Shown here: positions 19,963 through 32,237 of the stretch, piece after piece
Numbering within the stretch: position 1 is the first letter of the stretch
Layout of the letters: the number at the start of each line of letters is the position of its first letter
Origin: a virus
Lineage: Duplodnaviria; Heunggongvirae; Uroviricota; Caudoviricetes
IMG/VR virus record: IMGVR_UViG_2706796742_000001
Coordinates: 23,511 to 87,510 of that record
DNA: 64,000 nt
Reading direction: 5' to 3' (one strand)
The notes under the pieces: model-generated
What the model was told of the DNA's origin: nothing
Database searches by the model: none
What the model saw: the letters and a program-made list of their open reading frames with translations, nothing else
Program-made: the position numbers and the translations under genes

Positions 19963-27996
<8,034 letters not shown>

Positions 27997-27998
27997 TA

Positions 27999-29165
27999 AT
28001 GGCAGTAGGTGAAATTCAAATTAGTGCCTTGCCTCAAGCAGCCTTACCAATTGACCTTAGTGATATCTTCCATCTTAAGCAGGGTATTGAGGATAAGAGA
28101 TGCACTCTTGAGCAACTACTTGCTCCACACTCAAGCCTAAGAAACAACCCTCATGGTGTTACTAAGACACAGATTGGTTTAGATAATGTTATTAATGCTC
28201 TTCAGTTAGTTGCTGCAAATAACTTATCAGATGTTACTAATGTTGATGAGGCAAGAGCAAATCTACAGATTATGTCTTCAGAAGAGGTTAATAACCTTGT
28301 TCAACAGCATATTAATGATAAGAGTAACCCACACAACACAACTAAGGCACAGGTTGGTTTAAGTAATGTTCAGAACTGGACAACATCTAACCTTTATAAT
28401 GAAGATGCAGATAAGTACGCTACAGCAAGAGCAGTAAATAACTTGTACAAGGCTGTTCAGGCTTCTTACCCTGTCGGTACATTACATCTCTCTATGAATC
28501 CTGCAAACCCTTCTACATATTTAATTTGTGGGGGCACTTGGGAGTTAGTATCAAAAGGGCGAGCATTAGTAGGTTACGGTGATAACTCAAGGCCAGTTGG
28601 TAGTAACTTTGGCTCTAGTAGTGTTAGTTTGTCTAGTAACAATTTACCATCACACAGTCATTCAATCTATCTAACTGGTGGTGGGCATACACATGGTGCT
28701 GCCATTGCTATTGATAGCTTTGATTATGGTACTAAGGGTACAAGCAGTTTCGATTATGGAACAAAAAACACTAATACTACAGGGAATCACTCACACTCAG
28801 TCAGTGGTTCTACCAATACCACTGGTAACCACCAGCATAGTGTAGGTGGTCGTTACGGTGGTGACTCTATCGGTGGTAAACAGCGTGTTCAGGTATCAGG
28901 AACAAACCAGATTTCAAGTGTTGCTGGTGACCACTCCCATACTATTAGCGGCTCAACTAATACAGTTGGTGACCACTACCATAGTGTTGCAATTGGGGCT
29001 CATACACATACGGTTGGGATTGGTGCTCATACACATAAAGGCACAGTAACTTTGCAGTCATCTGAACATACTCACTCAGGTACTACGGGTGCTACTGGTG
29101 CTGGTCAAGCATTTAGTATTGAACAACCATCTTTTGTTGTTTATGTGTGGCAAAGAACCGCTTAA
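27999..29165 (+). CDS. tail fiber protein with His-rich C-terminal tip
   Basis: 388 aa; repeated HxH triads (GNHSHSVSG, GNHQHSVGG, GDHSHTISG, GDHYHSVAIGAHTHTVGIGAHTH); C-terminus shared with the next ORF. Confidence 0.65.
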   Translation: MAVGEIQISALPQAALPIDLSDIFHLKQGIEDKRCTLEQLLAPHSSLRNNPHGVTKTQIGLDNVINALQLVAANNLSDVTNVDEARANLQIMSSEEVNNLVQQHINDKSNPHNTTKAQVGLSNVQNWTTSNLYNEDADKYATARAVNNLYKAVQASYPVGTLHLSMNPANPSTYLICGGTWELVSKGRALVGYGDNSRPVGSNFGSSSVSLSSNNLPSHSHSIYLTGGGHTHGAAIAIDSFDYGTKGTSSFDYGTKNTNTTGNHSHSVSGSTNTTGNHQHSVGGRYGGDSIGGKQRVQVSGTNQISSVAGDHSHTISGSTNTVGDHYHSVAIGAHTHTVGIGAHTHKGTVTLQSSEHTHSGTTGATGAGQAFSIEQPSFVVYVWQRTA

Positions 29166-29174
29166 TTTCTTTAC

Positions 29175-29195
29175 AGGGGCTTTATAGCCCCTTTT
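29175..29195 (+). terminator. terminator-like hairpin between the two fiber genes
   Basis: AGGGGCT-TTAT-AGCCCCT followed by TTTT. Confidence 0.45.
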
Positions 29196-29211
29196 AAGAG
29201 GAAAATTTATA

Positions 29212-31554
29212 ATGGTAGATTACAAGTTGAGTGAATTAAACTCAATCGACACAATCCGTTCAGACGACCTTCTTCATGTCAGAGTTAAAAAGAGACCTGA
29301 AATGCTGGGTGATGAAGACCGTCGAATGACCTATCAAGATTTCTTAGCATCTTTTAAACTTGAAAGATTTGTTCAGATTGCTGGTAGTACTATGACTGGT
29401 GACTTAGGGATTGTTAAGTTACTTTATGGTGGTAAGTCAGTATTTGACCCAACAGGTTCTTCTGAGATTACTATTGGGGATGTTTTAAAGACTTTTAAAA
29501 TTAACGCAAATGGTCTTAAGCTAACCATTGCAGATGCTTCGAGGTCAGCAACTGTTTATCATACTCTTAATAAACCAAGCCCTAATGAACTTGGGATGAG
29601 AACTAATGAAGAGAATGATGCAAGATATGCAAGGCTTGCTGTCACAAACACATTCTCTGGAACTCAGAACATTCAAGGTGATGTTAACTTACTTCGCCTT
29701 AGAAACCAAAATGCAAACAATGCACAATATATTGAAGGTGTAAACCTAGATGGTTCAGCTAGATGGTTGGTTGGTATTAGTAAAAATGGCTCTGATGCAG
29801 TGCAACTGTACAATAATAAATATGACTCAGCTTTGACTATTGCAAGCAATGTCTCTGTTAATAAGTCTTTAGCAATCACTGGTCAAGTTCAACCATCAGA
29901 TTTCTCTAACTTAGATGCTAGATACTTTACTCAGACAGCAGCTAATCAGAGATTTGCACAGTTAGCTGGCAATAACACTTTTAGTGGCTCGAACACATTT
30001 ATTAACAGACTAAGTGTTTTCAAAAAAGATGGTGAGGCAATTAGGCTACAGAATAACAATGCTACACGGCCATTGTACATTATGGCGATTGATAGCGAAG
30101 GTGCCAAAAGATGGTACGTTGGTAATACTGATACAAGTGATAACGTAGTTCTAGAAAACTACAAAACTGGTGGAAAAATTACTGTAGGTACAAGTGTTAA
30201 TATCAATAAAACACTAACTGTAACTGGTCAAGTTCAACCTTCTGATTGGACTAATATTGATTCAAGATATATTCCGGTAGGAACTTTGAGTAATCTTGCT
30301 AAACTTAATGTTAAGAATACTTTTTCTCAAGGCCAGATTATCAATGCTGATGGGGAAGGTCTTAAGATTCAAGGTGTAAAAGATACTGGTGGATTGTTCT
30401 TGCAAGGTTGTACTTCTTCTGGTGCTAAGAAGTGGTTTATGGGTACTAATGATGCAGGTAACTTCACTATCAGGGAGATGGTGCTAGGCACTGAACTGTC
30501 TCTTAGGGAGAACTATATTCAGTTTAATAAGAATGTGACAATCAATGGTCAAGTTCAACCTTCAGATTTCTCTAACTTAGATGCCAGATACTACGTTAAA
30601 TCGGCAACCGATGCGAAGTACATCTGGTCAGCAGTCAGGGAGACAGTAAGAGAGGAGGATGGTGGTGTAGCTTGGAATAAACCTTCAGGAATCTATCTGT
30701 GGATGCGCAAGGGTGGTGGGTCAAACCGTTTAGTCTCGCACATGTTCGTTAATACGGGAGCATCAACACCTGCTGCACAATTGATGTTTGATTATAGAAA
30801 TGGTGGGATGTGGTACAGAACAGCCAGAGACGCACATGGTTTTGAGCAGGACTGGGCTAAGGTTTATACAGAGGCTCAGAAGCCAACCCCTTCAGAAATT
30901 GGTGCATACACTAAAGCTGAAACTGACCAGAAGATTGCAACAGCAATTACTAATTCTACAGACCTTAATAAAATCTATCCAGTAGGTATTGTAACGTGGT
31001 TTAACAGTAATGTTGACCCTAATACTGCACTTCCTGGATTAACTTGGACGTACCTGAACAATGGTGTTGGCAGAACTATTAGAATTGCAGCAGCAAATGG
31101 TTCAGATGTTGCTACAACTGGTGGTTCAGACTCTGTAACGTTATCTGTTGGTAACTTGCCTTCACACACTCATAGTTTCTCTGCGACTACTTCATCATTT
31201 GACTATGGTACAAAGACCACTAACAGTACTGGTGCTCATACACACTCGGTCAGTGGTTCTACTAACAACACTGGTGCTCATACACACACTGTAGGTGGTC
31301 GTTACGGTGGTGACTCCATCGGTGGTAAACAGCGTGTTCAGGTATCAGGAACAAACCAAGTTTCAAGCTCTGCTGGTGCTCACGCTCACACTGTGTCTGG
31401 TACTGCTGCTTCTGCTGGTGCTCATGCTCACACAGTAGGTATTGGTGCTCACAGCCACACAGTATCTGGTAACACAGGTGGTACAGGTTCTGGTTCAGCG
31501 TTTAGTGTTACTAATCAGTTCTACAAGTTAATGGCTTGGGTAAGGACTGCTTAA
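29212..31554 (+). CDS. large tail fiber protein with His-rich C-terminal tip
   Basis: 780 aa; internal repeats (LAITGQVQPSD x3) and C-terminal HxH module GAHTHSVSG ... GAHAHTVGIGAHSHTVSG. Confidence 0.7.
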   Translation: MVDYKLSELNSIDTIRSDDLLHVRVKKRPEMLGDEDRRMTYQDFLASFKLERFVQIAGSTMTGDLGIVKLLYGGKSVFDPTGSSEITIGDVLKTFKINANGLKLTIADASRSATVYHTLNKPSPNELGMRTNEENDARYARLAVTNTFSGTQNIQGDVNLLRLRNQNANNAQYIEGVNLDGSARWLVGISKNGSDAVQLYNNKYDSALTIASNVSVNKSLAITGQVQPSDFSNLDARYFTQTAANQRFAQLAGNNTFSGSNTFINRLSVFKKDGEAIRLQNNNATRPLYIMAIDSEGAKRWYVGNTDTSDNVVLENYKTGGKITVGTSVNINKTLTVTGQVQPSDWTNIDSRYIPVGTLSNLAKLNVKNTFSQGQIINADGEGLKIQGVKDTGGLFLQGCTSSGAKKWFMGTNDAGNFTIREMVLGTELSLRENYIQFNKNVTINGQVQPSDFSNLDARYYVKSATDAKYIWSAVRETVREEDGGVAWNKPSGIYLWMRKGGGSNRLVSHMFVNTGASTPAAQLMFDYRNGGMWYRTARDAHGFEQDWAKVYTEAQKPTPSEIGAYTKAETDQKIATAITNSTDLNKIYPVGIVTWFNSNVDPNTALPGLTWTYLNNGVGRTIRIAAANGSDVATTGGSDSVTLSVGNLPSHTHSFSATTSSFDYGTKTTNSTGAHTHSVSGSTNNTGAHTHTVGGRYGGDSIGGKQRVQVSGTNQVSSSAGAHAHTVSGTAASAGAHAHTVGIGAHSHTVSGNTGGTGSGSAFSVTNQFYKLMAWVRTA

Positions 31555-32206: not shown

Positions 32207-32237
32207 AAGGCTCCCGTAAAAAGGAGCCTTTTTTTGT
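32207..32237. terminator. bidirectional intrinsic terminator between converging gene blocks
   Basis: AAGGCTCC-CGTAAAAA-GGAGCCTT followed by TTTTTTTGTTTT; A-rich on the opposite side. Confidence 0.7.

Follow-up and report, generated by a model that had tools for sequence, protein, structure and literature searches.

In the distal tail fibres of T-even phages, histidine boxes (His boxes) reportedly flank variable adhesin segments, and recombination at these boxes is said to swap specificity, a picture credited to work of Tetart, Desplats and Krisch in 1998. The tip of T4 gp37 (PDB 2XGF) is an intertwined homotrimer with a collar (D10) and a stem (D11) that has seven HxH iron sites, at each of which six histidines coordinate Fe2+ octahedrally. 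Its tip subdomain, residues 932–959 (Islam et al. 2019), was identified by alanine scanning and binding assays as the surface that binds lipopolysaccharide (LPS) and OmpC; G938–G943 includes glycines essential for LPS binding, and K945 modulates specificity. The C-termini of Felix O1 gp76 and gp77 resemble T4 gp37 (Whichard et al. 2010). In the Felixounavirus Escherichia phage JohannRWettstein (Bas63), a 2025 cryo-electron microscopy report (PMC12609058) describes a short tail fibre (STF, gp26) and a long tail fibre (LTF, gp27), each attached to the baseplate; at the tip of each are a gp37-like collar, an HxH needle whose chain turns back on itself, and a small head. Here we describe the tail-fibre locus in 64,000 nucleotides (nt) of the IMG/VR virus record IMGVR_UViG_2706796742_000001 (positions 23,511 to 87,510; this whole stretch is the window, and coordinates refer to it), which on sequence grounds belongs to a Felix O1-like myophage of the genus Felixounavirus. 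Two adjacent + strand open reading frames (ORFs), fibre A (27999–29165; 388 amino acids, aa) and fibre B (29212–31554; 780 aa), share a near-identical 69-nt block. We consider it probable that both fibres carry gp37-type tips, that the block is a mobile head cassette, and that this cassette has been copied between the two genes by short-tract conversion.

Shared sequence and fold of the two fibre ends

A reading of the window from its sequence alone had taken the two ORFs for tail-fibre genes with a common His-rich HxH C-terminal module and a W-x-RTA end, and the ORFs, matches to PHROG and Pfam families and synteny with Felix O1 bore this out. By homology, fibre A corresponds to the STF and fibre B to the LTF. 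Their last ~185 aa were 52% identical (BLASTP E 3e-48), both contained GGRYGGDSIGGKQRVQVSGTNQ, and both ended in W-x-R-T-A (VWQRTA in fibre A, AWVRTA in fibre B). Within a surrounding 266-nt repeat of 74% identity lay the near-identical tract, 69 nt at 28841–28909 and 31290–31358 (offset 2449) with one mismatch (T at 28868, C at 31317). The near-identity over ~68 bp noted by the sequence-only reading thus held, but the two ranges it had paired were one base off (offset 2448), and in the correct register they contain two mismatches. It had also described HxH motifs followed by the shared sequence; both genes have that arrangement, but HxH motifs also come after the block, giving nine in fibre A and six in fibre B, placed on both sides.

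These similarities were far from what chance would produce. The DNA pattern for G-x-H-x-H-(S/T)-V occurred nine times in the window, always within the two gene ends (0.06 expected by shuffling), and the 23-nt core of the block had two sites only (0 expected). Where the two proteins had the same amino acid, the codon was also identical at 21/23 positions in the block and at 36/88 in the flanks (Fisher p = 1e-5). Among 36 distinct DNA versions of the head in other phages, synonymous variants were common at at least 10 head codons (for example TAC/TAT 22:14, TCT/TCC 29:7, CAG/CAA 12:16 and GGA/GGG/GGT 18:13:5), and the head DNA is therefore not intrinsically constrained. The identity of the two copies appears to reflect recent common ancestry.

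Both fibre ends matched the T4 gp37 tip 2XGF in a phmmer search of the PDB (fibre A, E 2.1e-26 over aa 228–359; fibre B, E 5.9e-15 over aa 639–758), and Pfam Phage_fiber (PF03335) was found in each (E 3e-11 in fibre B, 9e-4 in fibre A). The descending and ascending strands carried 4 + 5 HxH boxes in fibre A and 3 + 3 in fibre B. Spacing in fibre B (14 residues from 676 to 690; 14 then 9 along 724, 738 and 747) was the same as in T4 (915 to 929; 966, 980 and 989, in 2XGF alignment numbering). The innermost boxes, H929/H931 and H966/H968 in T4, H278/H280 and H312/H314 in fibre A, and H690/H692 and H724/H726 in fibre B, enclosed 31 residues in either fibre (H280–H312, H692–H724) and 34 in T4 (H931–H966). 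The shared block aligned to the gp37 tip subdomain, 932–959, with G-D-S-I-G-G of the head on T4 G938–G943 and the polymorphic residue after head K12 on T4 K945. From this place inside the innermost HxH boxes and from the alignment, the block would be the head itself and no linker. Judged by this homology, the 69-bp block encodes the receptor-binding head (GGRYGGDSIGGKQRVQVSGTNQ), and by analogy with T4 the head is the part most likely to contact the receptor; its hypervariability in relatives and its host-name association, described below, are indirect evidence alongside the T4 mutagenesis.

The proposed resemblance of the HxH arrays to metal-coordinating fibre tips gained support from the homology to 2XGF and from the conserved motif spacing, which favour an iron-coordinating needle with putative metal sites in a putative trimer. 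The chain would leave the collar and descend a trimeric beta-needle held by metal ions at the HxH boxes, form a small head at the distal pole, and re-ascend through further HxH boxes to the collar; the head at the needle pole would bind the receptor. The features of the two genes were as follows.

27999..29165, + strand: fibre A (388 aa), the short tail fibre gene, homologous to gp76 of Felix O1 and gp26 of Bas63; PHROG 2097 tail fiber (E 3e-137), Pfam Gp10_C and Phage_fiber, syntenic with Felix O1 ORF76
28458..28652, + strand: fibre A collar (T4 gp10/gp37 D10-like), starting near YPVG at aa 157; Pfam Gp10_C at aa 154–263, PDB gp10 matches at aa 143–227
28653..28844, + strand: fibre A putative descending needle strand with four HxH boxes (aa 219, 230, 264, 278) and two FDYGTK motifs; from motif positions and the 2XGF alignment
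28841..28909, + strand: 69-nt putative conversion tract, fibre A copy (one mismatch to the fibre B copy); from pairwise comparison, codon and three-sequence tests
28845..28931, + strand: fibre A predicted head (tip subdomain, aa 283–311) between the innermost HxH boxes; aligns to T4 gp37 932–965, hypervariable in relatives
28932..29162, + strand: fibre A putative ascending needle strand (five HxH boxes, aa 312–359) and C-terminal return to the collar (..VYVWQRTA); from the 2XGF alignment and motif positions
29212..31554, + strand: fibre B (780 aa), the long tail fibre gene, homologous to gp77 of Felix O1 and gp27 of Bas63; PHROG 4277 over its full length, Pfam gp37_trimer three times, gp37_C and Phage_fiber, syntenic with Felix O1 ORF77
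29858..30592, + strand: fibre B shaft with three 69-nt repeat units (at 29858, 30203 and 30524) encoding ..ITGQVQPSDFSNLDARY; from a repeat search and a match to Pfam gp37_trimer in three stretches
30655..30948, + strand: fibre B aa 482–579, a domain like phage Mu tail fibre S; PDB 8ju3 (E 1.5e-22), Pfam gp37_C PF12604
30967..31293, + strand: fibre B collar and putative descending needle strand (HxH at aa 652, 676 and 690; FDYGTK at 663); from Pfam, PDB alignment and motif positions
31290..31358, + strand: 69-nt putative conversion tract, fibre B copy; from pairwise comparison and the core-pattern count
31294..31380, + strand: fibre B predicted head (tip subdomain, aa 695–723); from the 2XGF alignment, T4 tip boundaries and the conservation profile
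31381..31551, + strand: fibre B putative ascending needle strand (HxH at aa 724, 738 and 747) and C-terminus (..KLMAWVRTA); from the 2XGF alignment and motif positions

The head in relatives and in the two genes of one genome

We compared the locus with 28 Felixounavirus loci from IMG/VR and 13 from GenBank, and drew conservation profiles from 28 fibre A and 26 fibre B sequences of unique relatives. In both genes, per-column pairwise identity was 0.7–0.99 in the collar, FDYGTK, the His boxes and the C-terminus, and 0–0.3 in the head. Among copies, in other phages, of the head allele that the window carries, the scaffold G-G-x-Y-G-G-D-S-I-G-G-K-x-R-V-Q was almost invariant. The LTFs of two relatives (loci L004 and L005) were 93–100% identical save for a ~190-nt cassette at ~40%, with breakpoints within a GxHTHS box and an HSVGIGAH box. 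The LTF of a metagenomic Felixounavirus (L001, 8150–8750) and gp37 of the Tequatrovirus Salmonella phage GRNsp7 (L031, 3675–4280) were 98–99% identical over ~270 nt, from FDYGTK to GAHTHT, between unrelated flanks, which indicates a very recent apparent transfer of the needle-tip cassette across families. The LTFs of two IMG/VR contigs (L005 and L008) had a head of T4 type (YIEAWNGTG...), while the rest of the gene was that of a Felixounavirus; the head, HSHYIEAWNGTG(A/R)GG(S/D)KMSSYAV(A/S)YR(A/T)GGSNTNAAGNHSH, is near T4 gp37 932–968 and points to a cassette that moved from Tevenvirinae into Felixounavirus. Comparison of fibre tips among related phages, which the sequence-only reading had proposed as a check, thus did reveal mosaic breakpoints, and these fall in FDYGTK and the GxHxH His boxes, the conserved motifs on either side of the head. 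The case clearly exemplifies a known kind of tail-fibre cassette swapping, and the mechanism is not new. In Salmonella phage Si3 (L002, 6218–8561) and in L010 (6223–8593) the long-fibre gene was frameshifted into two ORFs, by sequencing error or real inactivation.

FDYGTK and the GxHxH boxes would act as recombination linkers: with the homology that these conserved flanks give, heads are swapped among phages, even of different families, and pass between fibre genes. The sequence-only reading had suggested that the block would permit exchange of receptor-binding tips between the two fibres. Fibres do exchange, but the block appears to be the tip itself, the thing exchanged, and not a neutral patch nearby. 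Because the two copies form a direct repeat 2.45 kb apart, a reciprocal crossover in the block would delete the body of the long fibre and not swap tips.

Within the window genome, exchange between the two genes was apparent from a three-sequence test. At informative sites in the core, window fibre A agreed with window fibre B at 7–13 sites and with orthologous fibre A at 1, whereas at flank sites it agreed with fibre A orthologues at 43–44 and with fibre B at 13–15 (core versus flank, p = 8e-4 to 2e-6). Across the 14 genomes with the head in both genes, the mean A–B distance within a genome was 4.8 per 69 nt, compared with between-genome distances per 69 nt of 7.7 (A–B), 7.0 (A–A) and 8.3 (B–B) (permutation p = 5e-4). 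Over a 141-nt stretch that includes the flanks, orthologues differed at 14.8 positions and paralogues at 29.6; the flanks therefore retain a gene-specific signal. Amino-acid polymorphisms at head positions 3, 13, 17 and 21 co-varied between fibres A and B within genomes, as in Felix O1 (H/H), PMBT20 (P/P) and UAB_Phi87 (H3-A17-A21 in both fibres).

Tract length differed between phages. The window and BPS15Q2 had tracts of 69 nt, Felix O1 had one of 84 nt, UAB_Phi87 and PMBT20 had tracts of 117 nt, and the longest, 144 nt, was that of Seyj1-1. Relative to the start of the head, tracts started at -4, -16 or -45 and ended at +60 to +101, and the ends of the longer ones lay in or near His boxes. 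Fibres A and B differed at one position per 117 nt in each of UAB_Phi87, PMBT20 and Seyj1-1, yet the three phages were 10–25 nt apart from one another, so there were at least three independent homogenisations. The Seyj1-1 B copy had 3–4 differences from sister-phage A alleles and 18–21 from their B alleles, which indicates copying from A to B. Transfer from fibre to fibre would proceed by non-reciprocal short-tract conversion in the pool of replicating DNA, and in the window phage a 69-nt conversion would have made both heads almost alike. With heads so nearly the same, both fibre sets would read one receptor epitope.

A hybrid fibre was present in Salmonella phage vB_Si_35FD (MZ327261; L121, 3563–4765), where a single 400-aa protein joins a short-fibre N-terminus to a long-fibre C-terminus. 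The junction corresponds to window 28881 -> 31235, with a 96-nt tandem duplication of HTHSVSGSTNNTGAHTHTVGGRYGGDSIGGK, and the entire long-fibre shaft is gone. Either the A/B repeat underwent a real deletion or duplication, or the assembly collapsed there. For this phage, one tail protein fewer and a broader host range have been published.

Host association and rival explanations

The 69-nt block was found in 76 phage records, mostly with two matches per genome, as in roughly 56 GenBank records; 70 of the 76, Felix O1 included, were Salmonella-named, counts that are taken from organism names and are phylogenetically non-independent. The sole Escherichia-named record was vB_EcoM_PTE-Eco15 (167.7 kb). 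Other carriers of the head were the Salmonella Tequatroviruses GRNsp7 and Lv5cm, which have it in gp37, the P2-like S. Typhi phage STYP1, which has it in gpH, and prophage-type contigs. Salmonella Felix O1-type phages mostly carry one head allele on both fibres, and in the sampled E. coli-type relatives the two fibres carry heads unrelated to each other. Two Felix O1-type head blocks of 98.6% identity were also recovered from GU169904 (Staphylococcus phage SA1, 147 kb; 86294–86362), probably a chimeric or contaminated record. A back-translated head pattern matched E. coli and E. albertii contigs only among GTDB species representatives, a set that, with one genome per species, says little on Salmonella.

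The predominance of Salmonella-named records points to a receptor that is characteristic of Salmonella. The candidate that stands out is LPS core, because Felix O1 uses LPS (Whichard et al. 2010) and resistant S. Infantis had rfaK and rfaB mutations, and it is probably the receptor. A WaaK/RfaK-family LPS N-acetylglucosaminyltransferase (NF012028, 655 bits against a cut-off of 618) was encoded on the - strand of E. coli plasmid p1919D3-2 (NZ_CP046005.1; L123, 5316–6458), where this gene and an acetyltransferase adjoin the tail-fibre and Tfa genes of a head-bearing phage-plasmid-like element (likewise in L109 and L078). We rejected this neighbour as evidence on the head: the gene has the same position in L085, for which no head motif was detected, and it therefore tracks its element and not the head.

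Several observations weigh against a head cassette that binds a Salmonella receptor and is kept matched on the two fibres. Phages of the D1-2 and BPS17W1 type carried the head on the short fibre only, and in 5/14 genomes the two heads differed at 8–10 positions per 69 nt. The head was present in 18/5426 complete E. coli genomes (some on phage-plasmids) and in one E. albertii genome, so the allele is not strictly Salmonella-specific, and the name-based host counts share the non-independence noted above. Receptor contact by the head is argued from T4 as the one source, and a single-sequence AlphaFold2 model of the C-terminal 239 aa of the short fibre was unusable (predicted local distance difference test, pLDDT, 32; predicted template modelling score, pTM, 0.12). 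Variants Q497K and L534P from the 12-h Salmonella challenge of DaR-2019b, which also occurred in the control population and were more frequent after exposure, lie at aa 497 and 534 of the LTF, in a mid-fibre domain outside the head; the head may thus not be the sole determinant, and the shaft may hold a second determinant of specificity. In DaR-2019b (L115; 6364, 6476) a different domain takes the place of the window's Mu-S-like domain (30655–30948), with both variants inside it.

The block might instead serve chiefly as a recombination substrate, a patch of homology for the exchange of receptor-binding tips located elsewhere. A stretch of 69 nt at 98.6% identity is long enough for homologous recombination, and the junction of the vB_Si_35FD hybrid lies inside the block, but the block maps onto the tip subdomain, where the chain turns back and nothing in the fold is more distal. 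The ends of the conversion tracts bracket the head, the breakpoints in relatives are in the flanking His boxes and FDYGTK so that the exchanged piece includes the head, and a crossover between the direct repeats would delete 2.45 kb with the long-fibre shaft; we consider this explanation unlikely. A slightly lower probability attaches to the view that the two genes imported one head allele in separate events from outside, with a Salmonella prophage or a co-infecting T4-like phage as possible donors, and that neither copied the other. Fibres of P2-like and lambdoid prophages and Tequatrovirus gp37 do carry the allele, window fibre B resembles the prophage/Lv5cm type in its head and flanks, and the L001 LTF is almost identical to GRNsp7 gp37. 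Yet the prophage and Tequatrovirus copies have 6–11 differences per 66 nt from the window block, whereas the window copies are 1–2 apart; within-genome similarity is significantly in excess across the 14 genomes, and Seyj1-1 fibre B sides with sister A alleles, as A-to-B copying predicts.

Two further explanations would dispense with exchange altogether. Purifying selection on the peptide combined with codon preference, or an overlapping DNA or RNA signal, would fit the almost invariant scaffold of the head, but we regard it as very improbable: synonymous variants are frequent at head codons across the family, orthologues are ~7–8 nt apart per 69, and equally conserved flank residues use different codons. 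No opposite-strand ORF of at least 50 aa lay over either copy, and a promoter and terminator scan of the locus yielded nothing inside the fibre genes that exceeded chance. It would be more surprising still if the near-identity were an assembly artefact, by repeat collapse or consensus mixing of the two gene ends. Short-read assemblers can be misled by repeats of this size, with 35FD perhaps such a case, but BPS15Q2, sequenced independently, has the same 69-nt A/B tract with the same boundaries, tract lengths differ in Felix O1, UAB_Phi87, PMBT20 and Seyj1-1, and both window ORFs are intact and in frame. We prefer the reading of gp37-type tips whose head is a mobile cassette, copied between the fibre genes by conversion.

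Genomic setting and comparison with known systems

The 3.6-kb fibre locus matched 261 phage records (139 Escherichia-named, 80 Salmonella-named), the best matches being Salmonella and Escherichia Felixounavirus genomes at 85–93% identity over 68–87%, and the fibre A protein was 63–93% identical to those of 28 IMG/VR loci. Genes followed the Felix O1 order, in which the baseplate wedge genes and a 100-aa ORF precede ORF76 and ORF77, and two small ORFs come next, with td and frd beyond them on the opposite strand. Directly upstream of the fibres, as in the Felix O1 annotation, was the following stretch.

25365..27996, + strand: baseplate context, with a 489-aa wedge 2 (Baseplate_J), a 285-aa wedge 1 and an ORF of 100 aa; from ORFs and Pfam, the sizes 489/285 aa equalling those of Bas63 gp23/gp24

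Size and position suggest that the 100-aa ORF probably corresponds to the LTF platform of Bas63; its sole family match was PHROG 4141, to which no function is assigned. Pfam gp37_trimer matched three stretches of fibre B and none of fibre A, which places a gp34/gp37-like beta-helix repeat shaft in the long fibre only. The shaft repeats (29858–29926, 30203–30271 and 30524–30592) were direct, 70–88% identical and spaced by 345 and 321 nt, and encode N-K-x-L-x-(I/V)-(T/N)-G-Q-V-Q-P-S-D-(F/W)-(S/T)-N-(L/I)-D-(A/S)-R-Y, the gp37_trimer repeat unit. At the locus, the part of the genome that was searched, we saw no gp38- or Tfa-type chaperone gene adjoining the fibres; the only matches of the two downstream ORFs and the 100-aa ORF were PHROGs with no assigned function. 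In the gap between the late operon (+ strand) and the thymidylate synthase gene (- strand), at 32207–32230, lay a hairpin resembling a bidirectional terminator (AAGGCTCCC...GGAGCCTT), with runs of T on either strand.

The fold family was known before, as were the two-fibre build of Felixounavirus and the swapping of adhesins bounded by motifs, and the existing picture of gp37-type tips and modular tail-fibre evolution is unchanged. Our literature search found nothing specific on gene conversion between phage tail-fibre paralogues. Nor did we find it stated that the Salmonella Felix O1 clade has the same head on both fibres, that these heads are kept similar by recurrent intragenomic conversion, or that one cassette moves between Felixounavirus, Tequatrovirus, and P2-like and other temperate elements. 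In our analysis, two receptor-binding genes carried by a single virion evolve in concert. The likely host-specificity determinant narrows to ~30 residues (~90 nt) in diagnostically and therapeutically important phages, and FDYGTK and the His boxes are defined as natural splice points, of direct use in engineering host range and in predicting it from sequence. Were both fibres to read one epitope, a single LPS-core change could defeat both.

More tentatively, and with odds we would place below even, the ~25–30-residue GGRYGG head may be a portable Salmonella-type LPS-core adhesin shared among at least four lineages, namely Felixounavirus, Tequatrovirus, P2-like, and lambdoid or P1-like elements, and matched on both Felix O1-type fibres by recurrent conversion. 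If so, new host-range alleles at head positions 3, 13, 17, 18 and 21 would reach all twelve fibres together. This reading would help to explain the near-universal Salmonella specificity of Felix O1 and resistance through single LPS-core mutations.

Among described systems, both fibre ends are significantly homologous to the T4 gp37 tip, with the same HxH spacing on both strands and a short glycine-rich head between the innermost boxes, in which a G-x-G-x-G-G segment aligns with T4 G938–G943. The window head is, however, three residues shorter than that of T4 and of other sequence; the fibres have nine and six HxH boxes where T4 has seven, and the module sits on two separate fibres directly on the baseplate, not on a jointed fibre of four proteins. 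A dedicated assembly chaperone (gp38, gp57A or Tfa) is a feature of T4 and not of the fold; beside the window fibres at this locus we saw no gene of gp38 or Tfa type. T4 gp12 likewise forms a short fibre on the baseplate, with a collar-type domain and histidine-bound metal (Zn-binding HxH). A PDB sequence search with fibre A returned no gp12 chain at E <= 0.01, although gp37 and gp10 were found, and the window short fibre has a gp37-type needle and no gp12-type head.

The fibres P2 gpH, Mu S and P1 S have the same C-terminal module of collar, HxH boxes and head, and aa 482–579 of the long fibre are similar to Mu S (8ju3). Temperate carriers of exactly this head allele are STYP1 gpH, prophage loci (L072–L084) and E. 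coli phage-plasmids. P2, Mu and P1 fibre genes are followed by a Tfa assembly gene, with an invertible segment in Mu and P1; neither feature was present at the window locus. Bas63 shares the same genus-level locus, the two-fibre architecture, gp37-like tips and wedges of 489 and 285 aa, and head sharing or gene conversion was not found described in the available part of its report (PMC12609058). The exchange at His boxes in T-even phages is matched in the window group by a motif-flanked variable segment with breakpoints in GxHxH and FDYGTK. The window group differs in that its cassette is also exchanged between two paralogous fibre genes, in concerted evolution, and crosses between Felixounavirus, Tequatrovirus, Peduovirus and lambdoid or P1-like elements.

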